From: Chromatiales bacterium
GTDB taxonomy: Bacteria > Pseudomonadota > Gammaproteobacteria > Chromatiales > Chromatiaceae
NCBI GenBank assembly: GCA_022360905.1
Contig: JAKSBX010000065.1
Location: 24,148-88,147 of the forward strand
Length of the DNA stretch: 64,000 nucleotides
Direction of reading: 5' to 3'
Part shown: piece by piece, positions 21,534 to 39,899 of the stretch
How positions within the stretch are numbered: the first letter of the stretch is position 1
Layout of the letters: each line of letters starts with the position of its first letter
The notes under the pieces: generated by a model
Databases searched by the model: none
The model's input: the letters and a program-made list of their open reading frames with translations, nothing else
Told to the model about the DNA's origin: nothing
Made by a program: the position numbers and the translations under genes

Positions 21534-22412
21534 TTGAATAAGCCAAAGCGTGTTTGGAAAGACACAATAATAAAGGGTTTTTACATGGCATTGGTAAAAG
21601 ATCAGTTGGGCAGTGAAGCGTTCATCGGGGTTTCCGCGATTAAACTCTCATCCTCTCCATTCCCGGCGATGGAAAAGGGGAGTCCTACCGGTGTCTCGAT
21701 CAACGATAATCTCAGGTTGACCGATCAGCATATCCAGGACGGTCTCTCTTGTCTCAACCAGATCCAACAGGGTGATCATCACGTAAGTTCAGAGGAGCTT
21801 GAAAGAAAGCGAATCTCCCGTGAGCTCCACGATGGATTGGGACAGTTGCTTACCACCATGAGCTTGCATATACAGCGTTGTCTGGATGGTTGTGATGGGC
21901 AACAAAATGAACAGCAGAGTCAGCAGCGGGAATCTCTGGAAGCTGTTTCATCCATGGTCAAGCAGGCAATGTCAGAGGTAAGATCGATCTGCAGTGCAAT
22001 TCGACCTGCCATTCTCGATGATCTGGGTGTCATACCCGCAATATCCTGGCAGTGCCGTCAGATTACCAAAGTTTGTAGTGACACCCGAGTGGTAACCGAT
22101 TTCGATGTGGATGAAGAGTCCATACCTGAGGATTACAAGAGTGTCATCTATCGTATTGTGCAAGAGTCCCTGAACAATGCGGTTAAATATTCAAAAGCGA
22201 AAACCATCACTGTCTCACTGCTGCAAGCGCATGATGCCATCCATCTTTTGATCATCGATAATGGCGTCGGATTCGATCCTTCCGAGATTCAGGGGAAGCT
22301 GGGTATGGGGCTGGTCGGTATGCGTGAGCGGGCCGAGTCGGTGGATGGCAGAATACGTATCGATACCGGTGTCGATCAAGGCGTACAGATCCGCGCTTCC
22401 TTTCCCTTGTAG
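21534..22412 (+). CDS. Soluble NarX/UhpB-type (HisKA_3) histidine kinase with no recognizable sensor or TM domain
   Basis: ELHDGLGQ H-box, RPAILDDLG, QESLNNAVKY N-box, DNGVGFD G1, GMGLVGMRER G2. Start uncertain (21534, 21585 or 21669). Confidence 0.9.
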   Translation: MNKPKRVWKDTIIKGFYMALVKDQLGSEAFIGVSAIKLSSSPFPAMEKGSPTGVSINDNLRLTDQHIQDGLSCLNQIQQGDHHVSSEELERKRISRELHDGLGQLLTTMSLHIQRCLDGCDGQQNEQQSQQRESLEAVSSMVKQAMSEVRSICSAIRPAILDDLGVIPAISWQCRQITKVCSDTRVVTDFDVDEESIPEDYKSVIYRIVQESLNNAVKYSKAKTITVSLLQAHDAIHLLIIDNGVGFDPSEIQGKLGMGLVGMRERAESVDGRIRIDTGVDQGVQIRASFPL

Positions 22413-22484
22413 TGATCCTGGTAGCTGCTGTGAGATATCAAAACGCTCTGTAACTAAATCTATTATAGATTTATATCTTGCCAG

Positions 22485-23153
22485 TTAGCGGTTGATCAAA
22501 CCTTTCTCCAGCGCATAAGTCGTCAGCGCTGAAACATTGTGCAGATCAAGTTTTTTCATCAGGTTGGCACGGTGTTTTTCAACTGTTTTTACACTGATGC
22601 AGAGATAGTCAGCCATACTTTTATTGGTATGTCCTTCTGCAATGAGTTTCAGTATTTGACGCTCTCGTTGAGTAACCGTATCCCATCGAGTGAGGGGTTC
22701 ATTGTTGACATTATTGGTTTGCAGATAGCTGTTGACGACTTTTTCCGTTATCTCTGCGCTTAAGTATGTTTTGCCATTCAATACACGCTCAGCCGCTGTC
22801 ATTAACTCATTCTGAGTTGCATCCTTCAGAACATAACCATTGGCGCCTGCCTTAAGACTTGCCAAAACGTACTCTTCTTCATTGTGCACTGTCAGCACCA
22901 GGGTTTTGATCTCGGTATCCCGTTCTTTTATTTCGCGTATCGCATCCATGCCATTCATGCCGGGCATATTCAGATCCATGATTACCAGGTCCGGTTTGAG
23001 TTCAATGACCCGTCGTATTGCATCGCGGCCATTATCTGCTTCGCCAATCACATCGAACTGGGGATTGGAGGTTAATAATGCTTTTAATCCAGCACGCAGA
23101 ATATTGTGGTCTTCGGCGATGATGATTTTTTTCTTGTCACTGTTCATTGTCAC
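22485..23153 (-). CDS. NarL/FixJ (LuxR-HTH) family response regulator
   Basis: IAEDHNILR, VIMDLNMPGMNG receiver, and TQRERQILKLIAEG...KTVEKHRANLMKKL HTH. Confidence 0.95.
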   Translation of the reverse strand: MTMNSDKKKIIIAEDHNILRAGLKALLTSNPQFDVIGEADNGRDAIRRVIELKPDLVIMDLNMPGMNGMDAIREIKERDTEIKTLVLTVHNEEEYVLASLKAGANGYVLKDATQNELMTAAERVLNGKTYLSAEITEKVVNSYLQTNNVNNEPLTRWDTVTQRERQILKLIAEGHTNKSMADYLCISVKTVEKHRANLMKKLDLHNVSALTTYALEKGLINR

Positions 23154-23483: not shown

Positions 23484-23507
23484 AACCCTACCACCCAGGG
23501 TAGGGTT
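23484..23507. promoter_or_regulatory. Perfect inverted repeat AACCCTAC-N8-GTAGGGTT in the divergent promoter region; candidate regulator site
   Basis: 8-bp arms read directly from the sequence, between the response regulator and the giant gene. Confidence 0.4.
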
Positions 23508-23712
23508 TCTGCTGCCGCTCAAATACCGGGTTATCTCCTTTTCCAGTAGGGGCTTGCGTAGAGAAATAGCGTAGTTTCACGCAAAGCCACCTTTTATATA
23601 GATGGGTAGACTTTGGCCTAAGTACTGGTAATGGGGCTGGTAGTTTTTTTGACTTGAGTCAGATAGAGCCCCTGGAAAGTTGAATGACCAATAGGGGTCT
23701 GGAGAAAAATCC

Positions 23713-26700
23713 ATGATAAATGAAAATCAGGGTTACAAAAACAGAGGCTTGCAGTTTGTTGTATTTCTATGCCTCTCATTTCTGGTTACTACGCTGAATG
23801 CAGCCACTTTGACGATCAATGTGGTTGACCAGTCAGGTAACCCAATCACCGATGCGGATTTTGGATTTCGCTGGATGCTGGAGCGGGATAATACCTTCCC
23901 AGTTGATCCAATGAATCCTGGCACAACCGCTGATGAGTTACTATCGCTCAGCTTTCATGCCAGTAATCATGAAATCGGTGTCGGTACAGACGGCAGTTCG
24001 TTGGCAGGTAATGTCGACGGCAGTACGGCAAGCATTACCGACGATATCATCCCTGCAGGCCGCTATTATGTCTCTGTTCATCCTTACAGTGGTTATAGCC
24101 TGAGCGGTACTTCAGTAGAACTCACCGCAACAGATGCTGGTGTGGTTGAGGTCACTGTCCAGCAGTATCCGATCCCTACTGCACAGATCTCGATCTATCT
24201 GTTCGAGGATAAGCATCCGGTGAATGGTGTTCCGGATCTGCCGGAAGAGCAGAATGACGGCACTGTTGATTGGACTCAGTTCAGCCTGTTCCTTGAAGAG
24301 CCGGGCGGTCGCTACGGTGCCGCTGGCGGTCAGGTGATTCAGGACGCTTTCGGTAACTACCTCGGTACCACCTATGACCAGACCTGTGCTACCAGTAACC
24401 CGGTCGGTACTGGCGGTGATACCCCGGGTGGTATGATCAACGCGACCTGTATCGATGCTGACGGCAATCCGGTTATCGATGTACTGGGTGACGGTACCAT
24501 GCAGCCGGATGAGAACGGCTATCTGAATGTTAAAAACCTTGCGCCCGGCAAGTATGGTGTGGTCATCATTCCGCCACCCAACGCCGGTTGGCAGCAGACC
24601 AGCACCATCGAAGGTAGTAAGGTAATCGACGCTTGGGTCAAGGCCAACGAGCCGGCGGTTTTCGTGGAATTCGGTCTTCCAGGTCCCCATGTCTTCATGG
24701 GTTTTGTGCGTCCTTTCGCCGATCTGCCCCCAGCCCAGCCGGGTGAGCAGGTTGCAACGGTTAGCGGTACCGTTACCGACATGCACATGTCCCGTAACCC
24801 GGCTACCACCTTCTTCACTGGCCGTCCTTTCCCACAATGTTGGGTAGCCATCAACCAGGTCGGTGAGGGTGGCGCCCTGGGTCGCGCCGTCTATGCGGAT
24901 GCCTGTGATGGTGACAGCAACTTCTCTGTGGATCTGGTACCGCCAGGTCAGTATCAACTCGCGGTTTGGGATGCCAACCTGGATGTGGTCTTCGCCTCCT
25001 TGTTGTTCACCGTGGATCCAACCGGTGGTTCCTGTAACGGTGGCACCGTGGCCTCCTGTAGTTTTGGTGATGTGCCGGTATTCAACTGGTTCACACGTCT
25101 CAACACCGGCATCTTCAGGGATGATGACCAGGACGGTTTCTGGGACGACACTGAGATCGGTATCGGTCCTGAGAGTCAGGAGACCGTACTGCGCTGGCGT
25201 GACGGCACCATCTATCAGGCCTTCCCGACGGATGGTGATGGTTTAGCACCTTTTGATGAGATCTTCCCCTTCTTCCACTGGCTGGTTGCTGAAGTCAGCT
25301 TCGGTAACAAGAAAGCCACTGGTGCCACTTTTGTTGTGGACGCCGGTGGTGAAGTTCGTCCGGACGGCGGCTGGGCCGATCCTACCTTTGGCGAGCTCAA
25401 CCCTCAGGGGCAGTGTGAAGCTCGCGGCGTAGGCCATAGCGATATCATTATCTCTGCTACCGATCCTCGCGGTGCTATCGGTGATTGTCTCGGTTCTGAT
25501 GACGGTGGTGTTACCTGGGTTGTTGAAAACGCCCGGCAGATCATCAATCCGAATACCGGTAACAATCTGTCTCGCACCGAGACCGGTCTGGTACTCACCC
25601 AGGGCTTTCAGGGCTTTCTGGGGCAGACCAGTGTGATGCAGTTCGGTAAAGTCGACTATGTGATCGATACCCCGTTTGACTTCACCGCATTTCCTCCAAG
25701 AATTTCCGAGTATGTGGGTGAGAACGGCGGTATCTCCGGTATCGTCTACTACGCCACCACCCGTGCGGAAGATGAGCCTCAGTTCGCTGCGGCCGAGGAG
25801 TGGGAGCCTGGGGTACCACGGGTGCAGCTGGCTCTCTATGCGGATGGTGATGTCAACTGTCCTCCATTGACCAACTTTCCAACTGATCCTTGCGACATCG
25901 ACTGGAATGGTGACGGTATCCAGCAGCCGGACGATGGCGTGATCGAGGATATCAATGGTGAAGCCGGCATCCAACGGGCTGACGTGGATAACCACCCCTT
26001 AGGATGGGTGGACTGTTCGCCAGCTTGTGGTCCTGGTCCAGAAGACGTCGATTACAACGGCAATGGTGCTTTTGATCTTGGTGACGCCTTACAGATCACC
26101 CATACCGACAGCTGGGATGACAATCTACCTACCGGTTGTCAGGGTACCAATAACCCACCAGGTGCGGAGGTTGACCCTGCGGTCGATGATCAGCGCTGTT
26201 TCGATGGTCTGCGTAACTTCAACCAGGTTCGCGATGCACTGTTTGATGGTGGGTATGCTTTTGAAGACTACGACCTTGACCATCTGGCGTCGATTCCGGC
26301 TGCTCCCGGTTATAACGCTGCAGTCGTAGCTGCTAATCTCAGCGCTTTCTACGATGGTCTGAATACCGGCTGGCCGGAGTTGAATCTTCCGGGTGCCTGG
26401 CTCATCCCTGGTGACTATCTGGTTGAATCAGCAACACCTGCCGGTTACAAGCTGGTCAGGGAGCACCACAAGAATGTGGACTACGGCGATGAGTACATCC
26501 CGTCGCTGCAGGCCTTCCCCGCGACCTGCGTGGGCGAAGAAGTGATGGTGCCTCCTTATCTCGCAATGGCCACCAAAGACGGTAGCGGTGAAGCGGCTCA
26601 GCTGATCGCTGGTGTTGAAGCCATCGAGGCGCCTTTCGCCGGCGAAATGAGACCGCTCTGTGATCTCAAGCATGTACCGCTCTCAGCCGGTCAGAATGCG

Positions 26701-29700
26701 GCGGCCGAGTTCTTCCTGATGACCGACGTGCCTAAAGCAGGCAACATCTCGGGCATGATCCTCAACGACCTGGCCAACGAGTTCAACCCGAACTCACCCC
26801 AGTTCGGTGAGAAATTCGCACCGCCTCATGTGCCGATAGCGTTCTACGACTGGAACGGTAATGAGATCAATCGTGTCTATGCGGACAAGTATGGTCGCTA
26901 CAACCTGATGGTTGCTTCGACCACCACGGCGAATCTACCGATGCCATCAGGCATGTCGCCGAATATGCTGGTCTCTTGTATGAACGATGCGGGTCCGATT
27001 CCGAATCCGGATTTTACTGGTGCCGCCGGCGACGGTGTTGATGCCAGTGGTAATCCTGAGTTCATTATCGATCCACATTTCGATACTCAGTACAGCCAGT
27101 TCTGTTACACCTTCCAGTACATGCCGGGTACCATCACCTATCTGGATACCCCGGTTGAGCCGGTGGCTGCCTTTGCCGGTCCGGACCAGTTCCCACTGGA
27201 TTGTGAAGCGCCAACACAGACCCCGGCGATCTCCTCCGTGCTGCGTGAGGTGGTTCCAGCCAGCGGCATCGAAGGTCCTTTCGTGGTCGCCGGTACTGGT
27301 GAGAACATCGTCATCAACGCCAAAGGCCTGACCGCTGTTCGTAACCCGGAATGGGCCGAAGGAGATCCTTTAGCTGAACAGAACATTGATCGGGATTACG
27401 GTTTTGGTACCGTTGCCGGTTCGGTTCTTGTTCAGGATCGGAGTGGTAATCCAGTGACTACCCTGGGTGTCTCAACCTGGAGTGACAACGCCATTATCGC
27501 CTCTACTGCTGGTCTGGCAGCCGGTGAATACCAACTGCTGGTAGAGCACAACAACGGTAGTGTCTCTCCCACGGGTATCACACTGACCGTCGGTATCGCT
27601 GAAGGTGTGGGTCTTGGTAATAACAACTCCACCTATAACGTTGTCAATGTACCAAGCGCCGCCTATCCGACTATCCAGGATGCGATCGGCAGTCTCGATA
27701 ACGGCCTTGGTGGTGTCGGCGCTGGTGACCTGATCATTGTCAGGCCTGGTCTCTACAATGAGATGGTGATCATGTGGAAGCCGGTCAAGCTGCAGGGCTT
27801 TGGTGCCGAGACTACAATCATCAATGCCCGACAGACACCGACAGAAAAGATTATCGCCTGGCGTGAACTGGCTGCCGAGCTGGTTGGTACAGGTACAATC
27901 GACCAACTGCCAGGGCAGCTGGTACCCGTACCTTTCTTTGGTGGCGTTCAGGGTGCACTGGGTGCACCGATCTTCCCCACGGAAGAGGGTGCAGGCATCA
28001 TGGTTGCGGGTAAGTGGACCGGTCCCAACAGGTTCCATCGTAACAACCGCAACCGCTATGCCCGTATCGATGGTCTGAGCATCATCGGCGCCAGTACCGG
28101 TGGCGGCATTGTTGCCAACGGCTACACCCGTTTCCTGGTCATCTCCAATAACCGTCTCACCACTAACTCCGGTTTTTATGGTGGCGGTATCCGCATTGGC
28201 CACTCTACTCTGACTCATGAAATTAATGATGAGGATGATGAGTTCTTCAGACGCGGCTATAACAGCTGGCTTGAAGATCAGGCTGAAGACGGTTTCATGG
28301 CCTATGATGACGCCTTCGCCGACAACATGAATATCCATCATAACGAGATCATCAAGAATGGTGGATTGAATGGCGCCGGCGGTGGTATCTCAATCCACAC
28401 TGGTGCTAACAACTATCGTGTTCGCAGCAACTGGATCTGCGGTAACTTCTCCAAAGGTGATGGTGCCGGTATCGGCCATCTGGGACTCTCCCGCGGTGGT
28501 CAGATCCTGGATAACACCATTATCTTCAACGAGAGCTTCAGTCAGACACCAGGCACCAAGCCTGCCGGTGGCGGTATCTTCGTCGGTGGACTGGCCGGAC
28601 TGCGAGTCGATGAAGAGACTGGCCTGACCCTGTCTCCCGGTTCTGGTAACGTCAACATTCTCGGTAACCAGATTCGGGGCAACCTGGCCGGTGCCGGTGA
28701 TGGTGGCGGTATTGCCATGCTGAGTGTCAACGGTGAGGATATCGCACGCGACCCTGATGTCTTCGGCCGCTGGTATCGGGTAATTGTTGCCAACAACATG
28801 CTGAGCAACAATGTCTCAGGTCTTGCTGGCGCCATCTCTCTGTCAGACAGTGTCAAGACCTACATCCGTTACAACACGATTGCGAACAACGACTCCACCG
28901 CAACCGGTTCACAGGCTTTTGGTATCACTGATCCCAATCAGTCTATCGCCAAACCGGCTGGTGTCGTTGCCCGCTACCACAGTGCAACCATGATGTCTCT
29001 CATCGATGATGACGTTGCAGAAGAGTTCCCTGGCTCGCGGTTTGATGAAGATGATGTGCGGAATCGTAGTGAAGAGCGGATGACTTTCTCTGATCCGATC
29101 AGTCTGGTGGATAACATCGTCTACCATAACCGCTCGTTCTACTGGCGGAATACAGATGATCCAACGACCGTGGTACTGGAGAACGGTCTGGTGCCCGCAT
29201 CCTGCGATAACACCACCAACACAAACTGCGATATCACGTTGGTTAACGTGGAGGACTATACCCAGGATCTGGCAGTGCTGAACGGACACACCGTCAATCC
29301 GGTGCATCCGCAGTACGGCCCGATGTTGTTGCGTCCGCTGCGTAATCTGTTGCAGACCGGTGCATCTGCGGTTGCCAACAACACTTATATTGACGGCTAC
29401 TCAACAGCAAACAATGACCCGCACAACTCGCTTGGTCCGGTGTTTGTCAATGGTCGCTTCAATGAGGACCGTAATGCACTGATCTTCCCAGAGTTCAAAG
29501 TGCTGCAGGCAGCCGGTGCATTCGATGAAGGCGGCAACTTCCTGCAGGTCAACTTCGGTCCGCTCTCTCTGCTCGATATCGACGGTAATACTGCAACAGC
29601 GGATGCCCTTATCGATTATCACTTAGAGGCTGGAAGCCCGGCTATCGATGCGGCTGCCGCATCTGCCGGTACTGGCATCTACTCAACCGATATCGATGGT

Positions 29701-29754
29701 GATGCAAGACCGCAGGGCGCCAGAACCGACACCGGTGCCGATGAGAGGTTGTAA
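23713..29754 (+). CDS. Giant secreted protein (2013 aa): SdrD-B/prealbumin-like repeats, IPT/TIG-like domain, right-handed beta-helix, C-terminal choice-of-anchor-Q-like motif
   Basis: Sec signal peptide; GIFRDDDQDGFWDDTEIG and DxDxNG Ca-binding motifs; TIQDAI...GDLIIVRPGLYNE beta-helix entry; terminal DYHLEAGSPAIDAA...DIDGDARPQG...DTGADE. Confidence 0.8.
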   Translation: MINENQGYKNRGLQFVVFLCLSFLVTTLNAATLTINVVDQSGNPITDADFGFRWMLERDNTFPVDPMNPGTTADELLSLSFHASNHEIGVGTDGSSLAGNVDGSTASITDDIIPAGRYYVSVHPYSGYSLSGTSVELTATDAGVVEVTVQQYPIPTAQISIYLFEDKHPVNGVPDLPEEQNDGTVDWTQFSLFLEEPGGRYGAAGGQVIQDAFGNYLGTTYDQTCATSNPVGTGGDTPGGMINATCIDADGNPVIDVLGDGTMQPDENGYLNVKNLAPGKYGVVIIPPPNAGWQQTSTIEGSKVIDAWVKANEPAVFVEFGLPGPHVFMGFVRPFADLPPAQPGEQVATVSGTVTDMHMSRNPATTFFTGRPFPQCWVAINQVGEGGALGRAVYADACDGDSNFSVDLVPPGQYQLAVWDANLDVVFASLLFTVDPTGGSCNGGTVASCSFGDVPVFNWFTRLNTGIFRDDDQDGFWDDTEIGIGPESQETVLRWRDGTIYQAFPTDGDGLAPFDEIFPFFHWLVAEVSFGNKKATGATFVVDAGGEVRPDGGWADPTFGELNPQGQCEARGVGHSDIIISATDPRGAIGDCLGSDDGGVTWVVENARQIINPNTGNNLSRTETGLVLTQGFQGFLGQTSVMQFGKVDYVIDTPFDFTAFPPRISEYVGENGGISGIVYYATTRAEDEPQFAAAEEWEPGVPRVQLALYADGDVNCPPLTNFPTDPCDIDWNGDGIQQPDDGVIEDINGEAGIQRADVDNHPLGWVDCSPACGPGPEDVDYNGNGAFDLGDALQITHTDSWDDNLPTGCQGTNNPPGAEVDPAVDDQRCFDGLRNFNQVRDALFDGGYAFEDYDLDHLASIPAAPGYNAAVVAANLSAFYDGLNTGWPELNLPGAWLIPGDYLVESATPAGYKLVREHHKNVDYGDEYIPSLQAFPATCVGEEVMVPPYLAMATKDGSGEAAQLIAGVEAIEAPFAGEMRPLCDLKHVPLSAGQNAAAEFFLMTDVPKAGNISGMILNDLANEFNPNSPQFGEKFAPPHVPIAFYDWNGNEINRVYADKYGRYNLMVASTTTANLPMPSGMSPNMLVSCMNDAGPIPNPDFTGAAGDGVDASGNPEFIIDPHFDTQYSQFCYTFQYMPGTITYLDTPVEPVAAFAGPDQFPLDCEAPTQTPAISSVLREVVPASGIEGPFVVAGTGENIVINAKGLTAVRNPEWAEGDPLAEQNIDRDYGFGTVAGSVLVQDRSGNPVTTLGVSTWSDNAIIASTAGLAAGEYQLLVEHNNGSVSPTGITLTVGIAEGVGLGNNNSTYNVVNVPSAAYPTIQDAIGSLDNGLGGVGAGDLIIVRPGLYNEMVIMWKPVKLQGFGAETTIINARQTPTEKIIAWRELAAELVGTGTIDQLPGQLVPVPFFGGVQGALGAPIFPTEEGAGIMVAGKWTGPNRFHRNNRNRYARIDGLSIIGASTGGGIVANGYTRFLVISNNRLTTNSGFYGGGIRIGHSTLTHEINDEDDEFFRRGYNSWLEDQAEDGFMAYDDAFADNMNIHHNEIIKNGGLNGAGGGISIHTGANNYRVRSNWICGNFSKGDGAGIGHLGLSRGGQILDNTIIFNESFSQTPGTKPAGGGIFVGGLAGLRVDEETGLTLSPGSGNVNILGNQIRGNLAGAGDGGGIAMLSVNGEDIARDPDVFGRWYRVIVANNMLSNNVSGLAGAISLSDSVKTYIRYNTIANNDSTATGSQAFGITDPNQSIAKPAGVVARYHSATMMSLIDDDVAEEFPGSRFDEDDVRNRSEERMTFSDPISLVDNIVYHNRSFYWRNTDDPTTVVLENGLVPASCDNTTNTNCDITLVNVEDYTQDLAVLNGHTVNPVHPQYGPMLLRPLRNLLQTGASAVANNTYIDGYSTANNDPHNSLGPVFVNGRFNEDRNALIFPEFKVLQAAGAFDEGGNFLQVNFGPLSLLDIDGNTATADALIDYHLEAGSPAIDAAAASAGTGIYSTDIDGDARPQGARTDTGADERL

Positions 29755-29897
29755 TCATGAAAATGATCGACACACATGCAACTGAAAAGCGCCAGCCTGT
29801 CACCATGGACAATATCCTGGTTACAGGGTGGAACAAACTTCGCAAAACCACATTAGGTGAGTCAGGCGCTTACAAAATGACGAGGAGTAAACGCCCT

Positions 29898-31223
29898 ATG
29901 AAACTATTTAGTAAGCAAGCCCTTGCCGGGGCGATCGCCCTGGCACTGTTGGGCATCTCTGGCCAGGCTAGTGCCATTGTCAATGTACAGTGTCCTGGAG
30001 ATAACAACGGTGATGCAGACTGGAATGATGCTGGCGAATCCCAACCAGCGAATACCAAGTGTATACATCTGATTGCAGGCGACAGTTTTGCAAAAATGTC
30101 GGACGGCAACCCCTTGTACACCTTCGGTTTCGGTGATCAGACAGGGACACCCCCCGATCAGGTTATTGGCGAAGGTATCCTCAGTGCCGAGTGGCCAGGA
30201 CCAACCATCGAGTTGGATGAGGGAGATCAGTTCTATCTCAACCTGACCAACGTGGGTACGGTGATTCGGCCCGATCTGTTCGATCCGCACACCGTCCACT
30301 TTCATGGTTTTCCGAATGCGTCTGCAGCATTTGACGGTGTACCCGAGGTCTCGATCAGTATCAACATGGGATCGACACTGACCTACTACTACAACATTGT
30401 CGAGCCTGGCACCTACCTCTATCACTGTCACGTGGAGGCCACCGAGCATATGGAGATGGGCATGTTGGCCAACCTGTTTGTGCATCCGATACAGGACGAA
30501 CTGGGTTGCTTCGATATCGGCGCCGACAACCCTGGCACTGCGGACTACGATCCTGAAAGAGTACCAAATGGCAATTGTGCACCTGCGGTAGGTGATGCGG
30601 GTTACGTTTACAATGACGGTGATGGCACCACGGCATTTGATGTGGAGAAGGCGATCCAGCTTTCAAGCTTTGATCAGGTGTTCCACGATGCCAGCCTGTT
30701 TGTCCAGCCTCTGCCATTTGCTCTACTGGAAGGCAACTATCCACAGCTTAATGGCCGCGGTTATCCCGACACTGTCAATCCAAATGCACTTCCTGCTCCT
30801 GTAGATTCAGTGGATCCAATCACTGGCGGTACCGAGGGTAAGGTCACCGGTACGGTAGGAGAAGAGTTGACTGATGGTGCCATTACTCAGTTTCTGGGTT
30901 CCGATATCAGTGTCAATCAGGGTGAAAAGCTGCTACTGCGTCTCTCCAACGTGGGTCTGGATCGTTTCTGGACCATTACCGCGATGGGCCTGACCATGAA
31001 AGTGGTAGGCACAGGTGCGAAGCACATGCGGGGAACCGACGGCAAGAATATCTATCGTGAGGTTGCCTCCTATAACTTCGGTGGTGGTGAAACAGTCGAT
31101 CTGATCATCGATACCACTGGAGTTGCCCCCGGCACCTACTTCCTCCACGCAACTGAAGTCCATCAGATGAGTAATGCGACCCAGATGGATGGTGGCATGA
31201 TCACTGAGATCGTTGTCAACTGA
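29898..31223 (+). CDS. Two-domain multicopper oxidase subunit A (type 1 Cu site and half trinuclear ligands in domain 1; domain 2 degenerate)
   Basis: HTVHFHG (30288-30308) and YHCHVEATEHMEMGM (HCH at 30423). GAGGAG SD and a signal peptide support the start at 29898; the track ORF starts at 29757. Confidence 0.88.
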   Translation: MKLFSKQALAGAIALALLGISGQASAIVNVQCPGDNNGDADWNDAGESQPANTKCIHLIAGDSFAKMSDGNPLYTFGFGDQTGTPPDQVIGEGILSAEWPGPTIELDEGDQFYLNLTNVGTVIRPDLFDPHTVHFHGFPNASAAFDGVPEVSISINMGSTLTYYYNIVEPGTYLYHCHVEATEHMEMGMLANLFVHPIQDELGCFDIGADNPGTADYDPERVPNGNCAPAVGDAGYVYNDGDGTTAFDVEKAIQLSSFDQVFHDASLFVQPLPFALLEGNYPQLNGRGYPDTVNPNALPAPVDSVDPITGGTEGKVTGTVGEELTDGAITQFLGSDISVNQGEKLLLRLSNVGLDRFWTITAMGLTMKVVGTGAKHMRGTDGKNIYREVASYNFGGGETVDLIIDTTGVAPGTYFLHATEVHQMSNATQMDGGMITEIVVN

Positions 31224-31241
31224 GCCTGGCCGAACTAGGAG

Positions 31242-32681
31242 ATGAGATTAATGAAACAACTACTCAAACAACCTGGACGGCTTTTGGGCCTCCTGTTTTT
31301 GGGCATGAGCAGTGCGCTGACTGTGCAGCAGGCACAGGCAGAGCACGATATCCGAGGTATCTCACAGGGTGCCAATGGTGTTTTCAACCTCTATGCCTAC
31401 CCATTCAATATGAACCTGCCCGAGGGTACCAGTCTCTACATGTGGGGCTTCGGTGATCTGGATCTGGGTGAAGGCGCTTCCCATGATGCGGGTGCCAACT
31501 ACCAGTTGCCACAGTACCCCGCGCCGACACTGATCGTTACCGAGGGCGAGGCGGTCACCATCAACCTGGTGAACTATGGTGTGCCGGACAATATCTCCAT
31601 TGAGATGACCGGTCACGAGATCGATTCTCAATGTATCGATATTCCTGCACCAGGTGGTCCGACTCCGACTACCGGTGCGACAAACTGTACAGCCGGGCTG
31701 TTTACCAACGAAGCTGCTGTTGGCCAGGCCGTCAGTTATACCTTCACAGCGGGTTCCCCCGGCACCTATGTCTACCACAGTCTGGCAGGCGCGAACCCCG
31801 GGCTGCATACCGAGATGGGTCTGGTAGGGGTTATGGTTGTCAGGCCTGCTGATTTCGATCCAATCACAAACCGGACGGCCTACGGTGCCGGTACAGGAAC
31901 CGATTACGATCATGAGAATCTCTACCTGATGACCGAGGTGGATCCTGACATCCATATCCAGATGGAGAAGGGACACTACAACCACTTCACCAACACCGAT
32001 CGCTATGCCAAGGTTTGGTTCATCAACGGCCGGGTCTTCCCGGATCTGTTCCAGGGTGACTACAACACCCTGTTTCCCAACCAGCCTTATGAAGCCCTGG
32101 TCATGTCGCGTCCCGGTGATGTGGTCCTGGTACGCAACGTCAATGCAGGGCAGGATCCTCATCCCATGCACTACCATGGTGAGAACCTGCGGTTCATCGG
32201 CCGTGACGGCAAGATGTTGAGTTCCGATGGTTTGGTTGCCAACCTGGGTCGTTCGGACAACACCACCAACTCGGCACCAAAGCAGACAATTGATGCCCTT
32301 TGGACCTGGACAGGTAAAGACCTGGGTTGGGACATTTTCGGTCACGATACCGGACACAACTGTATCGATGTCAATCCGCGTGATGGATATGCAGATGCCA
32401 ACTCCGACTACCCCGGTGAGTGGTGTAATGACCACAACAAGCCAATTCCTGTCTCACTGCCTGGTGTGGGTGATCTGACCCTGGGTGGCTGGTGGAGCGG
32501 TAGCCCCTTCCTCGGGGACACCGGCGATCTGCCTCCTGGTGAGGGTGGTCTGAATCCGTTTGGTGGCTACTTCCTGGTGTGGCACTCCCATGCTGAAAAA
32601 GAGCTGACCACCTTTGACATCTTCCCTGGCGGAAGCCTGGGCTCAGTCGTTGTGCTGCCTCCTGGTACACCAATCAATTAA
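31242..32681 (+). CDS. Two-domain multicopper oxidase subunit B (trinuclear ligands only in domain 2; no type 1 Cys)
   Basis: Signal peptide; YPAPTLIVTEG and GTYVYHS in domain 1; HPMHYHG (32160) and WHSH (HSH at 32583) in domain 2. Confidence 0.88.
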   Translation: MRLMKQLLKQPGRLLGLLFLGMSSALTVQQAQAEHDIRGISQGANGVFNLYAYPFNMNLPEGTSLYMWGFGDLDLGEGASHDAGANYQLPQYPAPTLIVTEGEAVTINLVNYGVPDNISIEMTGHEIDSQCIDIPAPGGPTPTTGATNCTAGLFTNEAAVGQAVSYTFTAGSPGTYVYHSLAGANPGLHTEMGLVGVMVVRPADFDPITNRTAYGAGTGTDYDHENLYLMTEVDPDIHIQMEKGHYNHFTNTDRYAKVWFINGRVFPDLFQGDYNTLFPNQPYEALVMSRPGDVVLVRNVNAGQDPHPMHYHGENLRFIGRDGKMLSSDGLVANLGRSDNTTNSAPKQTIDALWTWTGKDLGWDIFGHDTGHNCIDVNPRDGYADANSDYPGEWCNDHNKPIPVSLPGVGDLTLGGWWSGSPFLGDTGDLPPGEGGLNPFGGYFLVWHSHAEKELTTFDIFPGGSLGSVVVLPPGTPIN

Positions 32682-32697
32682 TCGGGAGGGCACAAAC

Positions 32698-35600
32698 ATG
32701 AAAAGGTCTACTACCATGAAGCAAACACTGAAACCCATCGTAGTCGCCTGTGCCTTGGCTTTAGGTGCCGGACAGGCGAATGCATTGGATGTCTATCTCA
32801 TTGCTAAAGAGTTCACCCAGGACCTGCCCGGGGTTGCAGCAGTGGATGATCCCACCATGTGGGGTTATGCTCTGGATCCTGCAGGTGCCTGTTATAATGG
32901 TGGCGCCCCCGATGTGCTCGGTGCGGCCTGTACCGGTCCGGTGGCGAGTGCACCCGGTCCACGGATTGCCATCGATCCGGCAGATCCTGTCTTGAATATC
33001 TACCTGACCAACATGCTCACTGAAGAGACATCCATTGTGGTGCCCGGTCAGCCACTGCCTCATGCGGGCGGTGCGATGGGGCCCACCTGGAATGACGGCA
33101 GTGTCAGTAGCAGCCGCGGCGGCAACCTCGCTCTGAAGATGCGTTCTTACGGTCTGGAAGCGGCAGCCAACGGCGGCACACAGGTCTACACCTGGGATGC
33201 AGCCAACCCAATCGACAATAGCGGTTCGTTCATCTATCACACCGGCACCATGCCTCAGAAGCAGCTCTATATGGGCCTGTATGGTGCTGCCACCAAAGAT
33301 GCTGCTGTCGGCAATGTACTTTATGATCTGGATGGTACGGTAGGAAATGCAGATGATGTGACCTACGCCAACGAACTGATCCTTTTCTACAGTGACATCG
33401 ATACTCACTTCAATGAAGAAGTGGTAGCTGGAACTCTGCAGACTGCGATCGAGCGCCATCCTCAATGGTATATGATCAATGGTCAGCCTTATCAGGCAGG
33501 ATTTCCAGACATCCAAACAGGTGAGGGTGGTCTGCCGTTGACAACTTCCGGGCCAACCCTGCTGCGCTTCATCAGTGCGGCAACTGAAAAGCATGTGCCT
33601 GTTCTGCAGGGCCTCTACGGTACCATTCATGCTGAGGACGGAATCCAGTATACCTACGAGGATGATACCGGCGTCCATGCCGCACCGGTTGAGCAGTATT
33701 CTGTCGGCCTGCCTCCACTGAAAACCAGGGATGTCATCATTCAGCCCACCTTCAGTGGTCGGTATGCGATCTATGACGGCAACGGCAACATGACCAACCC
33801 GAGTGATCCTGAAGACTTCAATCAGGGCGATGAGATCGGTGGCATGCTGCGGTTCCTTGGCTTCAATGTCGGTGCCAACCAACCACCGATTGCCAATGCG
33901 GATCCAATCACCATCCAGATTCCTGAAGATCTGGGGGCCGCAACTACCTCATATCAGGTCACGGAAAACATTGATGTGTTGGCTAATGATATGGACCCGG
34001 ACGGTGATACCATCACACTGGGCACTCTCATCGGATTGCCGGATACCGGATCCATACCTGGTTTGACGTTGCAATTTCAATGTATAACAGGAACCAGTTG
34101 TGATCTATCTCTTGATTCGGCCGTTCCACCCAGTGTGGTTGGTGGAGAAACAGCTCAGTTCCAATATGAGATCACCACAGCGGCTAATCCTACGCCTGTT
34201 CAAGGTAGTGTGGATCTTACGGTTGAGGTTAATGCGGCACCTGTCCTGGCTACCGCACCACAGATCGTAATTACCACAGACGATCTGGTTGCTGATGTGG
34301 CTACCATCAATCTGGCGGATCTGGTGGCGGATGCAACCGATGCGACCGCCGGTGATACGGTAAGCGTATCGGATACGCCTCCCGTTGCCATCGCAGCCGT
34401 GCCTGCAACCACCGCAACGCTGGTGGGTTGTGACTACGTGGCAGGTACCTGCAGCATCAGCTTTGCAAGTACATCGGCACCAGCCCAGTTGAACCTGGAT
34501 TTCGCCATGACCGACGGTCTGAACCTGGTTGAGGGTCAGTCAGCGACTGTCTCCCTGGCCTTCCCTGGACCAACGCTGTTTGATGATACAACCACGCTGG
34601 ATCAGGTTGGCGCGCTGGATCTCGACGTGAACGATGTCAACCTGCCGGCCAGTTACGGTCTGGCTTTGGCCACACCTCCGTCAGCCGGTACTGCGACTGT
34701 GGAAGACGACGGTACGATTACCTATACCACAACCGCAGCGCCGTTTACCGGTGATAGCTTCACCTACTGTCTGACCAGTGCACCAGGGGATGATGTCTGT
34801 CTGGCAACTCCGCCTGCAGCAACGGTTACCATCGATCCTGCTCCGGCATCCGGATTGATCGCAGTCGGTGGCAAGACCTATACCGCTGATGAGGATTCGA
34901 TCCTTGACGTACTCGCAGCTAACGGTCTGTTGATAGGTGAATCAGCCATCAATGGCGGTACTCTGGCAGTAGTCGTGGATAGTGCACCGACCTGTGCCAA
35001 CACCGCAGCCGGTAGCTTCACCTACGATGGTGCGACTGGTTCCTTCCACTATGAACCTCTGCTGGATTGGAACAGCGTCAATCCTCCGGTGGATGACGGA
35101 GATGCCTGTACCTTGAATGACACCGCAGGTGCCAGAGGTGCCGACACGATCGTCTACCATCTGGAAGAGACCTACGATGATGGCGGTACTTTGGTAACCA
35201 TCAGTAGTAACACAGTGACGGCAGAGATTACTGTCAATCCGGTCAACGATGCACCGGTAGCTGTGAACGATACGTTCTATGTCCAGGATGCCTCTACAGC
35301 TGTAACGGATGGACAAGGTGAGCCAATATCTATGACCTTCAGTGTTGCACCAGCTGGGGTTCTCGGGAACGATACCGATCTTGAGAATGACAGCCTGCTG
35401 GCGACCGAAGTGAATGATCCTGGCAACCTGCCTCCTGCACTGGGGATCGATGGTTCCATACCAAGCTTTGCTATCAATCCCACGGCGGTCGGTGTTCTGA
35501 ACACTATCGAGTATCAGGCAAGCGATCTCGTTGCTCAGAGCAATACCGCTACTGCAGACATCGTGCGTCAGGTCTCGGTTACCCGGGCCTCCTATCTGCA

Positions 35601-35955
35601 GCGTGGCACTGCCGGTACTGGCAATGACAGATGGCGCATCAGAGGTCTGGTTGATACGACCATCCCAACCACAGGTACTGCACAAGGCGTACGGGTTTAC
35701 CTGGTACGGGTCGATATCAACGGGACACCATCGCCACGGGTTGAGATCGTTCCCACAGCGACTGGCAATAACAACGGTCGTATCCGGTCTGTCGGTGGAC
35801 AACATGTCTGGGGTATCAACGTCAACGGTGTTGGTAACAATCGACCTGAAGTTGAATTGCCAGATGGCAATGACTATCTGGAAATTGAGGTGGTTGATTT
35901 AGTCACCTACCCCGAGGCTGTCTACAACAACGTACCACTTGATATCGAGCCATAG
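32698..35955 (+). CDS. MCO-like subunit C: two nearly ligand-less cupredoxin domains plus cadherin-like/Ig (Big_9/VCBS-type) repeats
   Basis: APGPRI, GSFIYHTG, MINGQPY cupredoxin scaffold motifs, then NQPPIANAD, NAAPVLA and VNDAPVAVNDTF Ig repeats. GGGAGGG SD precedes ATG 32698. Confidence 0.8.
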   Translation: MKRSTTMKQTLKPIVVACALALGAGQANALDVYLIAKEFTQDLPGVAAVDDPTMWGYALDPAGACYNGGAPDVLGAACTGPVASAPGPRIAIDPADPVLNIYLTNMLTEETSIVVPGQPLPHAGGAMGPTWNDGSVSSSRGGNLALKMRSYGLEAAANGGTQVYTWDAANPIDNSGSFIYHTGTMPQKQLYMGLYGAATKDAAVGNVLYDLDGTVGNADDVTYANELILFYSDIDTHFNEEVVAGTLQTAIERHPQWYMINGQPYQAGFPDIQTGEGGLPLTTSGPTLLRFISAATEKHVPVLQGLYGTIHAEDGIQYTYEDDTGVHAAPVEQYSVGLPPLKTRDVIIQPTFSGRYAIYDGNGNMTNPSDPEDFNQGDEIGGMLRFLGFNVGANQPPIANADPITIQIPEDLGAATTSYQVTENIDVLANDMDPDGDTITLGTLIGLPDTGSIPGLTLQFQCITGTSCDLSLDSAVPPSVVGGETAQFQYEITTAANPTPVQGSVDLTVEVNAAPVLATAPQIVITTDDLVADVATINLADLVADATDATAGDTVSVSDTPPVAIAAVPATTATLVGCDYVAGTCSISFASTSAPAQLNLDFAMTDGLNLVEGQSATVSLAFPGPTLFDDTTTLDQVGALDLDVNDVNLPASYGLALATPPSAGTATVEDDGTITYTTTAAPFTGDSFTYCLTSAPGDDVCLATPPAATVTIDPAPASGLIAVGGKTYTADEDSILDVLAANGLLIGESAINGGTLAVVVDSAPTCANTAAGSFTYDGATGSFHYEPLLDWNSVNPPVDDGDACTLNDTAGARGADTIVYHLEETYDDGGTLVTISSNTVTAEITVNPVNDAPVAVNDTFYVQDASTAVTDGQGEPISMTFSVAPAGVLGNDTDLENDSLLATEVNDPGNLPPALGIDGSIPSFAINPTAVGVLNTIEYQASDLVAQSNTATADIVRQVSVTRASYLQRGTAGTGNDRWRIRGLVDTTIPTTGTAQGVRVYLVRVDINGTPSPRVEIVPTATGNNNGRIRSVGGQHVWGINVNGVGNNRPEVELPDGNDYLEIEVVDLVTYPEAVYNNVPLDIEP

Positions 35956-35976
35956 TTAGTATCATGGCGTGAGGCA

Positions 35977-36009
35977 CCGCCCCCTGTATTTCAGGGGGCG
36001 GATTTTTGT
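35977..36009 (+). terminator. Rho-independent terminator after the giant protein/MCO-ABC genes
   Basis: Perfect 10-bp stem CCGCCCCCTG-tattt-CAGGGGGCGG followed by ATTTTTGTT. Confidence 0.8.
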
Positions 36010-36049
36010 TAAGATCAATCGTCAAACGACACTATTCCTGGGTAGTAAC

Positions 36050-36643
36050 ATGAAAAGTTCACTCTTTTCCAACAAGACGCCTGAGGATGAGAAGGAGAGG
36101 CATCCCGGAGGCAATCCTCTGCTTGTAATCCTGGTCCTGGTGATCTGCACCATGGCCTTTGTTGCATTCACCGCATCCGTTGCCAAGGCAGATAGCAAAG
36201 CTCCGGTACAGACATTAGAAAAGGCGGCCCCCAAGCCCTGGCAACCTCCTGTCGCCAAAGCAACCGTTCCCACCCCCCCTGTGGATCAGAAAACCGCCAA
36301 GCAAATCGCTGAAAAATGGGGGGTTGAGCTACTGAGTCTGCGCCTTACCGCAGCTGGCTATATGATCGATTTCAGATTTCGGGTGCTCGATATCGAGAAG
36401 GCCAAGATCTTTTTCGATCATCGTATCAAACCACACCTCAAGGTTGAGAAATCTAATGCTAAACTACCTATACCCATGGCAGCCAAGGTAGGTGCATTCA
36501 GAGCGACCAACCGGGGTAAGAATATTAAGTCCAATAAGACCTACTATATGGTATTCGGCAATCCTGATGCCCATGTGAAATCAGGAGAAAAGGTTACAAT
36601 GGTGATTGGCGACTTCAAAGCTGAAAATTTAACAGTCAACTGA
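36050..36643 (+). CDS. Hypothetical membrane-anchored periplasmic protein
   Basis: Single N-terminal TM (LLVILVLVICTMAFVAF) and a compact domain with LRLTAAGYMIDFRFRVLD and YYMVFGNP. ATG 36050 is preferred over the track start at 35969. Confidence 0.7.
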   Translation: MKSSLFSNKTPEDEKERHPGGNPLLVILVLVICTMAFVAFTASVAKADSKAPVQTLEKAAPKPWQPPVAKATVPTPPVDQKTAKQIAEKWGVELLSLRLTAAGYMIDFRFRVLDIEKAKIFFDHRIKPHLKVEKSNAKLPIPMAAKVGAFRATNRGKNIKSNKTYYMVFGNPDAHVKSGEKVTMVIGDFKAENLTVN

Positions 36644-36665
36644 TCCGTTGACTCGAGAAGGAAAT

Positions 36666-39881: not shown

Positions 39882-39899
39882 CATAAAAGGGTACATACG

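Follow-up and report, generated by a model that had tools for sequence, protein, structure and literature searches.

Histidine kinases are usually viewed as self-sufficient homodimers. Few natural systems divide these tasks, sensing and ATP use, between kinase-like proteins, and most of them were found through mutants (FasBC, the ChrS pseudokinase, DivL and RetS). DivL, for instance, has a Tyr in place of the His, and HK1/HK2, which Shrivastava et al. are said to have described, reportedly form a kinase spread over two genes, one for ATP binding and one with the phospho-His, with one regulator. HK1/HK2-TcrA is listed among the systems of Mycobacterium tuberculosis (PMC9321153), and DivL can do without both its ATPase domain and its autophosphorylation residue (PMC9491836). 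In FasBCA of group A Streptococcus, a DHp and ATPase fragment of FasB and a TM and DHp fragment of FasC suffice (PMC12675982). H246 of FasC is required, FasB and FasC heterodimerise, and FasC was proposed to be a pseudokinase (PMC12675982). In Corynebacterium glutamicum, the ChrS pseudokinase has lost its catalytic domain and still shapes signalling, while its active paralogue HrrS phosphorylates ChrA; two-hybrid assays showed that ChrS forms heterodimers with HrrS (PMC9491836). This pseudokinase is a product of laboratory evolution, its His is dispensable, its effect is mainly a loss of phosphatase activity, and according to its authors no natural ChrS pseudokinase is known (PMC9491836). In Pseudomonas putida GB-1, MnxS1, MnxS2 and MnxR are all required for expression of multicopper oxidases, and one strain has mcoA and a SCO1/SenC gene between its two Mnx kinase genes (PMC13689576). 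MnxS1 and MnxS2 are complete kinases with 59% identity, MnxR is sigma-54-dependent, and complementary domain loss was not reported (PMC13689576).

The window of this study, which is the whole stretch of 64,000 nucleotides that was analysed, contains a soluble histidine kinase, a response regulator and a membrane protein at the two ends of a copper-oxidase operon, their presumed target. From their sequences and conservation, these three proteins probably form a phosphorelay controlling the divergent copper-oxidase operon. The features are as follows.

21585..22412, + strand: soluble HisKA_3 histidine kinase, 275 aa (Pfam, DesK alignment, gene call, orthologue N-termini)
21585..21788, + strand: kinase N-terminal tail, about 68 residues (pLDDT <50, no Pfam or PDB match, dN/dS)
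21801..22010, + strand: kinase DHp (HisKA_3) hairpin with H99/D100/Q104 (Pfam, alignments, model)
22146..22409, + strand: kinase catalytic ATP-binding domain with intact N-box, G1 and G2 (Pfam HATPase_c, VraS match, alignments)
22485..23153, - strand: NarL/FixJ-type response regulator, REC and GerE HTH, 220-222 aa (Pfam, NCBIfam)
23713..42331, + strand: copper-oxidase operon, presumed target (ORFs, Pfam)
42371..43762, + strand: membrane Cache/PDC-like HisKA_3 protein, 463 aa (Pfam, TM scan, folds, alignments)

The operon starts with the gene for a secreted protein of 2013 aa. It further encodes two multicopper-oxidase subunits and a third paralogue, which is copper-free and has a cadherin-like stalk, as well as a protein of 224 aa, a Calx-beta protein, SCO1/SenC and a fusion of cytochrome c with a periplasmic-binding-protein domain. 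Expression of a homologous cluster of Sideroxydans was higher on magnetite (PMC12016527).

The longest possible ORF of the kinase runs from TTG 21534 to 22412 on the + strand and has 292 codons for amino acids. An earlier note on this DNA had placed the start at 21534. The true start is almost certainly ATG 21585, because the database gene call is 275 aa long, M[AT]LVKD is the common N-terminus of the orthologues and this ATG is preceded by an AAGGG motif. The residue numbers used here for the kinase (H99, D100, Q104 and the Cys positions) are those of the 292-aa ORF. The HisKA_3 domain covers residues 90-159 (E 7e-16) and the HATPase_c domain residues 205-292 (E 2e-13), and Pfam found no PAS, GAF or TM in the protein. 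No membrane helix was found either, as the highest mean of any 19 residues on the Kyte-Doolittle scale was 1.38. The solved catalytic core of DesK aligns with residues 90-286 (E 6e-15), and the H (ELHDGLGQ), N (QESLNNAVKYS), G1 (DNGVGF) and G2 (GMGLVGMRERA) boxes are in register with those of DesK as well as with those of the other HisKA_3 kinases of the genome. Thus, the earlier description of a kinase with all catalytic boxes and without PAS, GAF or TM was confirmed. H99, D100 and Q104 of the HDxxxQ motif were invariant among 25 homologues, and the ATP-binding domain possesses the N-box Asn, the DxGxG of G1 and the GxGL of G2. The AlphaFold2 model had a pLDDT of about 90 in the catalytic domain and below 50 for residues 1-84, and the modelled catalytic domain matched VraS with a TM score of 0.90 and an rmsd of 1.5 A. 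The dN/dS of the core was 0.02-0.09. Among the six HisKA_3 proteins of this genome, only this kinase is short. By its sequence, the kinase is of the NarX/DesK/LiaS type and appears to be equipped for autophosphorylation and phosphoryl transfer, and it looks able to act with the regulator unaided.

The regulator contains a REC domain (E 6.5e-31) and a GerE domain (E 4.8e-17), with an acidic pocket of E14/D15, D60, T88 and K110 as read from the sequence, which is the make-up of the NarL/FixJ type. Its NCBIfam matches to NarL, MctR and PRK15369 were partial and below the equivalog cut-offs, and Pfam found no AAA+/sigma-54 domain in it. Its gene was said to be convergent with that of the kinase and divergent from the giant gene. 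This is the case: the stop codons of the kinase and regulator genes are 72 nt apart, and 559 nt separate the start of the regulator gene from that of the gene for the 2013-aa protein. The identities of the regulator within the genus ranged from 86 to 99%, and regulators with about 60% identity adjoin oxidase clusters in Gallionella, Ferrovum, a beta-proteobacterial MAG and Desulfobacteraceae.

The membrane protein has two transmembrane segments, and HisKA_3 is its only Pfam domain. Its folds are predicted to be Cache/PDC-like in the periplasm and kinase-like in the C-terminal part. It retains the phospho-His helix, with an invariant H272-E273-xxx-Q277, and the RP/LDD box. However, the N-box Asn, G1 and the glycines of G2 were missing from all of the 25 aligned members of its family, down to 26% identity. 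In these members, the Asn of the N-box is replaced (KDTLKAICFDE) and what is left of G2 is M.E[RK]..LSGG; the membrane protein itself has no GxG there. No HATPase_c match was found in the membrane protein or among its full-length relatives found, nor was a functional ATP site recognizable. Judged by these residues, the membrane protein is a pseudokinase and not a kinase, and it may be read as the sensing partner of the soluble kinase.

The earlier note held that each of the two proteins has what the other lacks and that both are of the same HisKA_3 subfamily. The former applies literally to the sensor/TM part and to the ATP site (Pfam, alignments), and both proteins keep the phospho-His helix. 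The latter holds at the level of Pfam but not in the tree, where the kinase sits in a distinct clade of cassette-linked kinases. The two are not close paralogues, and their defects are complementary. Since both keep the invariant phospho-His, the acidic residue at H+1 and the Gln at +5, the split is not clean, and a kinase-versus-phosphatase arrangement would fit these residues as well as trans-phosphorylation. The distances in their DHp hairpins were 20 and 23 residues from the His to the tip and 31 and 29 residues from the tip to the RP box, for the kinase and the membrane protein, respectively, which is compatible with heterodimerisation and no more. Cache-type sensors normally signal as homodimers, which is not easily squared with the kinase and the membrane protein forming a simple 1:1 DHp heterodimer.

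In 45 genomes of the genus, the genes for the kinase and the membrane protein were both found in 35, neither was found in eight and the kinase alone was found in two. Both of the kinase-only assemblies are fragmented, and the kinase match of G123, one of the two, is cut off by the contig end. Three of the genomes without the kinase and the membrane gene also lack the oxidase subunit. Moreover, the three genes stay together through rearrangements. In G083 and G085, the oxidase operon is deleted and kdsB, kinase, regulator and sensor are adjacent, and in G100 and G122 the operon is reordered and the sensor has moved beside the regulator. As the trio is intact in G083 and G085 without an adjacent operon, the targets of the regulator may exceed this operon. 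A tight cassette of the trio was also found in G052, G010, G041, G055, G059 and GCA_041320475, as well as in one MAG each of Gallionella, a beta-proteobacterium, Thiobacillaceae and a gamma-proteobacterium, and the cassettes often adjoin homologues of the giant gene, of the oxidase subunits or of gspDEF. The trio is thus shared by many sulfur and iron oxidisers, including other genera of the family. All cassette-linked kinases belong to one clade (support 96/96), which is separate from the four other HisKA_3 kinases of the genome. Given that this clade mixes members with and without PAS, the kinase core, not the input domain, is the constant partner. Thus, the proposal that the ATP-dead membrane protein is linked to the kinase and its regulator held up at the level of an evolutionary unit, on the grounds of co-occurrence, rearrangements and distant cassettes. 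The trio is not obligatory everywhere, however, because two members of the sensor family (L015 and L045) have no kinase or regulator within 8-10 kb on either side, two others (L012 and L014) have the regulator alone nearby, and in Ferrovum and a Desulfobacteraceae MAG the orthologue of the regulator is paired with one complete kinase.

In GCA_041320475, the gene call of the kinase is a HATPase-only protein of 189 aa, and a design with an ATPase-only partner was considered. The H-box is found in frame 5' of the called start, with the deviant motif ELHYSVGHQ and without a canonical start codon; in a related MAG, the H-box motif is normal. The call is read as a local oddity of assembly or annotation and not as a general design with the catalytic domain alone.

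The intergenic region between the regulator gene and the operon contains several conserved elements with putative functions.

23485..23506, no strand assigned: candidate operator, inverted repeat ACCCTACC-N6-GGTAGGGT, about 205 nt 5' of the first operon gene
23521..23600, no strand assigned: further conserved promoter-proximal elements (phylogenetic footprint), namely the four below
23521-23527: half-site-like AAATACC (phylogenetic footprint)
23546-23552: half-site-like GTAGGGG (phylogenetic footprint)
23569-23588: conserved block GCGTAGTTTCACGCAAAGCC (phylogenetic footprint)
23595-23600: TATATA element (phylogenetic footprint)

Among 18 aligned Thiodiazotropha intergenic regions, the arms ACCCTACC and GGTAGGGT were nearly invariant and the spacer was variable. 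The inverted repeat occurs once in the window, with 0 copies expected by chance. G100 has related half-sites in its rearranged loci, and G022 has such half-sites next to its short kinase. The regulator would be the protein that binds the repeat at 23485-23506. An RNA hairpin or terminator is a less likely explanation of the palindrome than a DNA site, because it is the sequence of the arms that is kept and not their pairing alone, G100 has half-sites that are arranged differently and there is no U-run. A search for a wider regulon, which covered the rest of the window, the scanned rearranged and distant loci and the region 5' of the paralogous oxidase cluster of G083, returned single half-sites only. 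Scans for sigma-70 promoters, as well as for a terminator or hairpin between the convergent kinase and regulator genes, gave nothing above chance.

The N-terminal tail of the kinase was checked for a cryptic sensor. It has many Ser, Leu, Gln and Gly residues and is predicted to be disordered. At E<=10, the only Pfam match was DUF5446 (E 0.06, below its cut-off), and the PDB sequence search returned zero matches. In an exhaustive phmmer search with the kinase, nearly all of the best 150 matches started at query residue ~65-70, and only a handful of these 150, foremost the nearest orthologue, extended into the tail. A cryptic folded sensor was rejected on the basis of these searches together with the AlphaFold2 pLDDT below 50. 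The dN/dS of the tail was 0.18-0.26 (about 0.2), compared with 0.02-0.09 for the core, so that by this measure the tail is under purifying selection, and it contains the short conserved motifs LGS, L.LSSS.FP, G[VI]SIN and DGL.CL. In addition, the kinase possesses clade-specific cysteines. C116, C153 and C174 were invariant in 25 homologues of the short kinase, down to 38% identity, and no equivalents were found in the alignments with DesK and the four other HisKA_3 kinases of the genome. C116 lies at the tip of the DHp hairpin, where it forms a CxxxC together with C120, and C153 lies in helix 2; equivalents of C153 and C174 recur in G052 and G010. The constrained tail and the cysteines could be an input of the kinase's own.

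In the switch that we propose, the membrane protein would read a periplasmic signal with its Cache/PDC-like domain and without ATP use, and the fusion of cytochrome c and binding protein, encoded just 5' of the membrane gene, may share in reading it. The soluble kinase would provide the only working ATP site and have no folded input domain. The regulator would take the phosphoryl group and act on the repeat and on the neighbouring half-sites 5' of the operon. The physical interaction, the direction of phosphoryl flow and the signal are what we infer from the sequences. For the coupling between the two kinase-like proteins, the most likely form, with a little under half of the total probability, is that they associate by their DHp helices, similar to what has been proposed for FasB and FasC, and that the membrane protein gates the kinase, is phosphorylated by it on H272, or both. 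Another possible form, ranked after this one, is that phosphorylation of the regulator by the kinase is largely constitutive and that the membrane protein, via its HExxxQ motif, serves as a phosphatase under control of the signal. It is doubtful that the system amounts to an obligate heteromeric kinase, assembled by DHp helices with H272 trans-phosphorylated, that is ancient, is shared by gamma- and beta-proteobacterial sulfur and iron oxidisers and serves as a dedicated oxidase switch with a redox check by the cysteines.

The invariance of C116, C153 and C174 within the clade, their absence from the other HisKA_3 kinases of the genome and from DesK, and the constraint on the tail, which is not neutral, would also be expected if the two proteins were parallel inputs. 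The kinase would then be a cytoplasmic sensor of thiol redox or metal via its cysteines, or of a partner bound to its tail, independent of the membrane protein, which would be a second, periplasmic input, a phosphatase or a phosphoryl sink. A PAS with a conserved LHP[GE]C-x4-C in relatives of the kinase points to a history of cytoplasmic sensing in the lineage, an orphan paralogue of the short kinase seems to work without a pseudokinase neighbour, and the kinase itself has an invariant His, Asp and Gln. Nevertheless, parallel inputs are rather unlikely. No cofactor-binding fold was found in the kinase, the cysteines could be structural, and independence of the two proteins leaves unexplained why an ATP-dead, His-invariant neighbour was retained through many rearrangements. 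This explanation is moreover compatible with the three-protein switch and not exclusive of it.

Far less probable is an ordinary, self-contained pair of kinase and regulator, in which the membrane protein would belong functionally with the oxidase or secretion genes, or with another regulator, and would lie nearby only through shared ancestry of the locus. The kinase seems to have everything needed for such a pair, short HisKA_3 kinases without an input domain are not rare (lengths of 245-320 aa in about 20 of the best 150 representatives), and some members of the sensor family stand alone or with the regulator only. Against it, the kinase and membrane genes are co-present or co-absent in 43 of the 45 genomes of the genus, their adjacency with the regulator gene survives deletion and reshuffling of the operon, independent finds of the cassette come from several genera and from beta-proteobacteria, and no other NarL-type regulator is found beside the membrane protein within the window. 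The idea that the kinase is a truncated, non-functional relic of a longer PAS-kinase, suggested by relatives of 392-718 aa with PAS domains at the same position of the cassette, deserves hardly any credence. The short kinase is free of stops in 37 of the 45 genomes, the one stop found being in a separate paralogue copy, and several branches of the kinase clade contain short forms. On the dN/dS of both the core and the tail and the intact catalytic boxes and residues, a truncated pseudogene was rejected.

The locus has several useful properties. Both reduced forms are encoded as such and are conserved across genera and classes, and the graded series of partner kinases with and without PAS could be used to probe the evolution of such a division of labour. 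The switch would also give a handle on when symbionts of lucinid clams and iron oxidisers induce the extracellular copper-oxidase operon. To our knowledge, Thiodiazotropha has not been cultured. The three proteins and the 559-nt promoter region are small enough to be rebuilt in E. coli.

Literature searches, which covered few subscription journals, returned no described system of a HisKA_3 pseudokinase with a soluble kinase, and a design of a sensorless kinase with an ATP-dead membrane sensor appears to be seldom described and never tested in the HisKA_3 family. The parallel drawn earlier with MnxS1, MnxS2 and MnxR was quoted correctly (PMC13689576), but it is loose: those kinases are complete paralogues with a sigma-54 regulator, whereas the regulator of this locus has REC and GerE domains and the kinase-like proteins are not close paralogues. 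The soluble kinase shares the fold of the bifunctional HisKA_3 kinase/phosphatases DesK and NarX (PDB 3EHF, 5IUJ, 7SSJ), with its boxes in register with those of DesK. In DesK and NarX, sensor, DHp and ATPase are in one membrane protein, whereas here the ATPase and the sensor are on separate polypeptides. A phosphatase motif of bifunctional HisKA_3 kinases was reportedly described by Huynh et al. in 2010. This motif is kept in both the kinase (HDxxxQ) and the membrane protein (HExxxQ).

Similar to this locus as proposed, DivL-CckA of Caulobacter and RetS-GacS of Pseudomonas aeruginosa have a kinase-like protein that is not a kinase and controls a true kinase by contact (PMC9491836, PMC8498467). 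RetS, however, inhibits GacS, neither DivL nor RetS has a soluble kinase without a sensor as its partner, and both systems are of other kinase families. Different from the ChrS pseudokinase, the ATP-dead membrane protein of this study is ancient and conserved and has kept its His. HK1/HK2 is a clean split into two small proteins, whereas here the kinase and the membrane protein both keep the DHp His and the latter also has a dead ATPase of catalytic-like fold. The closest tested precedent is FasBCA, with two kinase-like proteins, one regulator and the division of labour that is proposed for this locus; the traits recognizable by sequence are the dead ATPase and invariant His of the membrane protein and a natural partner with DHp and ATPase only. 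The regulator of Fas is ComE-like (PMC12675982), whereas here a HisKA_3 kinase is found with a NarL/GerE regulator. Moreover, the Fas split was revealed when two membrane proteins, full-length in nature, were truncated by engineering, whereas the reduced forms of this locus, known from sequence, are natural and conserved genes.

To judge by the names attached to the best protein matches, the window derives from a genome of Candidatus Thiodiazotropha, a sulfur-oxidising symbiont of lucinid clams. The genes discussed here are arranged in the window as follows.

21585–22412, + strand: short soluble HisKA_3 kinase
22485–23153, − strand: NarL-type regulator
23713–42331, + strand: oxidase operon, whose first gene encodes a giant protein of 2013 amino acid residues
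42371–43762, + strand: membrane-bound sensor, 463 amino acid residues

An open reading frame at 21534–22412 (+) could encode 292 residues from a TTG codon, which is where the earlier note had begun the kinase. The start is placed at the ATG at 21585 instead, because the database gene call is 275 residues long, M[AT]LVKD is the N-terminus common to the orthologues and an AAGGG motif lies 5′ of this ATG. In the numbering of the 292-residue frame, Pfam places HisKA_3 at residues 90–159 and HATPase_c at residues 205–292, with no other domain. Residues 90–286 align with the solved catalytic core of DesK (E = 6e-15), and the H-box (ELHDGLGQ), N-box (QESLNNAVKYS), G1 (DNGVGF) and G2 (GMGLVGMRERA) are in register with those of DesK; the same boxes are carried by the genome's four other HisKA_3 kinases. 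In an AlphaFold2 model based on 25 homologues, helices 86–119 and 126–164 form the DHp hairpin, the catalytic domain has a pLDDT of ~90 and residues 1–84 have a pLDDT below 50. The model matched DesK and the catalytic domain of VraS in Foldseek (VraS TM 0.90, rmsd 1.5 Å). No 19-residue window of the kinase was hydrophobic enough for a membrane helix. The defining features of the HisKA_3 family, as tested, were all present, and Pfam, the DesK alignment and hydrophobicity agreed with the previous description of a kinase with intact catalytic boxes and without transmembrane, PAS or GAF segments.

Neither Pfam (above its cut-off) nor PDB (E ≤ 10) yielded a match to the N-terminal tail of ~68 residues. 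The kinase was also compared with 1.84 billion representative proteins: of the 150 matches listed, nearly all began at query residue ~65–70, and only a handful, the nearest orthologue foremost, extended into the tail. Among the 25 homologues the tail varied in length and sequence. Between close orthologues its dN/dS was 0.18–0.26 vs 0.02–0.09 for the core, so the tail is not neutral, and the short motifs LGS, L.LSSS.FP, G[VI]SIN and DGL.CL were kept. The tail is read as disordered, with docking motifs, rather than as a domain. The claim that the kinase has no sensor thus stands as far as a folded N-terminal domain is concerned. Cysteines specific to the clade offer a second conceivable input: C116, C153 and C174 are invariant among the short kinases and absent from DesK and the genome's other HisKA_3 kinases, and C116 and C120 often form a CxxxC at the tip of the DHp hairpin. 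Thiol-based sensing through these residues is thus possible.

In a maximum-likelihood tree of transmitter cores, all 20 cassette-linked kinases fell into one clade (support 96/96), separate from the genome's other HisKA_3 kinases. One subclade contained short forms only, namely the orthologues of Candidatus Thiodiazotropha, orphan paralogues and the kinases of a Lamellibrachia symbiont and of genome G022. The other subclade was mixed, with PAS-bearing kinases of Ferrovum (446 residues), a beta-proteobacterial MAG (392), G055 (718) and G059 (540) as well as short kinases of Gallionella, G052, G010 and a gamma-proteobacterial MAG. Since both types are intermixed, more than one branch has acquired or retained the input-less state. 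What these predicted cassettes have in common is a DHp-ATPase core beside a pseudokinase. Ferrovum, the beta-proteobacterial MAG and G055 have cassette-linked kinases (L097 7350–8690, L084 10001–11179 and L046) whose PAS domains share a motif LHP[GE]C-x4-C; this motif, perhaps a site that senses metal or redox state, is absent from the window kinase. Among the six HisKA_3 proteins of its genome, the window kinase is the only short one. Some other Thiodiazotropha genomes also possess a recent short-kinase paralogue beside a REC-TPR protein and another small protein of the ATPase type; no pseudokinase lies near it. For instance, at L024 (G084:C1, 9690–13160) the paralogue (253 residues) is divergent from the REC-TPR gene (546 residues), followed by a HATPase_c-only protein (239 residues), which makes a distinct signalling cluster in which input-less kinases are likewise used.

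The sensor possesses two membrane helices, and HisKA_3 is its only Pfam domain. Its model comprises a Cache/PDC-like periplasmic domain, an unbroken helix from the second membrane segment into the DHp and, at the C-terminus, an alpha/beta domain that can be superposed on the catalytic domain of VraS (TM 0.75). HATPase_c had no match in ~115 homologous clusters of 450–470 residues, and the ATP site, as tested, was not found in the sensor. In an alignment of 25 members with identities as low as 26%, H272, E273, Q277 and the RP/LDD box were invariant, and the N-box Asn, the G1 box and the glycines of G2 were missing throughout, bearing out the earlier view that this distant HisKA_3 sensor is ATPase-dead. 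By this alignment the sensor is an ancient and conserved pseudokinase whose phospho-His helix has been retained.

The regulator consists of REC and GerE domains (Pfam), has the usual phospho-acceptor residues and showed the features of the NarL/FixJ family, as tested. Its gene is convergent with that of the kinase, with stops 72 nt apart, and divergent from the giant gene, with 559 nt between the two starts, in agreement with the layout first described. In several other Thiodiazotropha genomes the kinase and regulator ends are ~15 nt apart or less, or overlap by 11 nt (locus L007), and the predicted transcripts there must overlap in antisense. Identities within the genus were 86–99% for the regulator vs 53–90% for the kinase.

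Alignment of 18 regulator/giant-gene intergenic regions of Thiodiazotropha revealed the following conserved elements.

23485–23506: inverted repeat ACCCTACC-N5-6-GGTAGGGT, with nearly invariant arms and a variable spacer
3′ of 23485–23506: half-site-like elements
23569–23588: 20-nt block GCGTAGTTTCACGCAAAGCC
23595–23600: TATATA

The repeat occurs once in the window, where none is expected by chance. Several ACCCTAC half-sites, including GTAGGGT-AA-ACCCTAC, were found in both rearranged intergenic regions of G100, and a similar palindrome lies between the oxidase-like gene and the short kinase of G022. The repeat is a good candidate operator, to which a dimeric GerE-type regulator would bind. 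Its right arm plus a T-run (GGTAGGGTTTTT) is present as a single copy at 58295–58306, in the divergent region between a Calx-beta subtilase gene and gspD, and a loosely similar TACTACC-TTG-GGTG is at ~58185–58197. The 7-mer ACCCTAC had 6 matches in the window vs 4.1 expected; the half-site matches near gspD may reflect a shared regulon or chance. G083 contains another complete oxidase cluster that is a distant relative of the first (L112, G083:C6:8000–27999), with a giant gene of 33% identity, oxidase subunits of ~25–40% identity, a 224-residue protein, SCO1 and a subtilase. This second cluster has no palindrome nearby, nor the three signalling genes. In Sideroxydans the homologous cluster is expressed more strongly with magnetite than with Fe(II)-citrate (PMC12016527), so operons of this type are indeed regulated in at least one organism.

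Among 45 genomes of the genus, kinase and membrane protein were both found in 35, both absent from 8 and never represented by the membrane protein only, while the kinase only was found in 2 with fragmented assemblies (one match running off a contig end); as related genomes are not independent samples, no p-value is attached to these counts. In three genomes without either, an oxidase subunit was also missing. The kinase and sensor are ~20 kb apart on one contig in most genomes of the genus, as in the window. G083 and G085 lack the operon entirely; in them kdsB is followed by kinase, regulator, a remnant of the cytochrome/binding-protein gene and sensor. The remnant has 81 residues in G083 (L007, G083:C2, 10566–11337) and 54 in G085 (L008, G085:C75), and the kinase, regulator and sensor are still open reading frames. 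Also absent from both genomes is 43808–58040 (~14 kb, encoding a DegP-like protease, a 1016-residue protein and others), such that gspDEF homologues directly follow the sensor; this block may be an insertion in the window or a deletion elsewhere. In several more distant loci the sensor is likewise beside, or a few kb from, gspDEF genes. In GCA_041320475.1 the short kinase is annotated as a 189-residue HATPase-only protein (L011, 12071–12800), with a deviant H-box, ELHYSVGHQ, in frame 5′ and no ATG, GTG or TTG before it. Possible causes are a non-standard start codon, a fault in the assembly and decay.

Other gene orders also keep the three genes together. The order in G100 and G122 is kinase, regulator, SCO1, sensor and giant gene. 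In G052, of another genus of the family, regulator and sensor are convergent with a short kinase, and G010, also of another genus, has the mirror image. G041, G055 and G059, likewise of other genera of the family, have sensor, regulator and convergent kinase, with a giant-gene homologue adjoining in G041 and G059. In one further genome of this group, whose sensor is only 29% identical, sensor and regulator are again convergent with a short kinase, and the 10 kb fetched to each side contained no oxidase genes. Beyond the family, MAGs of Gallionella (kinase of 260 residues), a beta-proteobacterium, Thiobacillaceae and a gamma-proteobacterium also carry the trio, often adjoining oxidase, giant-gene or gspEF homologues. 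There were exceptions: the stretch fetched around some sensors contained neither kinase nor regulator, that around others a regulator only, and the regulator orthologue (60% identical) of Ferrovum and of a Desulfobacteraceae MAG is paired with one complete kinase.

Domain complementarity, loss of the ATP motifs, gene linkage and promoter conservation were all observed, and at the sequence level the partnership of kinase, regulator and membrane protein is well supported. Of the proposed split of sensing and catalysis over two genes, the partnership thus stands, by linkage and complementary domains, and the mechanism of coupling is what we infer. Placed foremost is a heteromeric complex: the membrane protein would gate the soluble kinase and/or be phosphorylated on H272. 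The invariant His of a protein unable to autophosphorylate, the precedent of FasBC and the similar length of the two DHp hairpins in the models argue for it. Ranked next is a constitutive kinase with the membrane protein as a signal-controlled phosphatase, in favour of which are the motifs that both proteins keep, H-E-xxx-Q in the membrane protein and an intact HDxxxQ in the kinase; independent inputs to the regulator would come third. In many genomes the sensor gene is just 3′ of those for SCO1 and a cytochrome-c/binding-protein fusion, a conserved position that makes the fusion protein a possible periplasmic co-sensor.

The parallel drawn earlier with MnxS1 and MnxS2 is a loose one, as MnxS1S2R consists of two complete paralogous kinases and a sigma-54 regulator (PMC13689576), a pattern that the trio does not fit. 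Nor does it fit the clean split of HK1/HK2 of M. tuberculosis. A literature search of incomplete coverage turned up no natural HisKA_3 pseudokinase described as the partner of a sensorless soluble kinase. Less close are the pair of HrrS and the ChrS pseudokinase, which evolved in the laboratory (PMC9491836), DivL-CckA and RetS-GacS. For the whole trio, as predicted from sequence, the closest working likeness is FasBCA: in FasBC, a DHp-plus-ATPase fragment and a transmembrane-plus-DHp fragment suffice, and the His of the membrane partner is required (PMC12675982).
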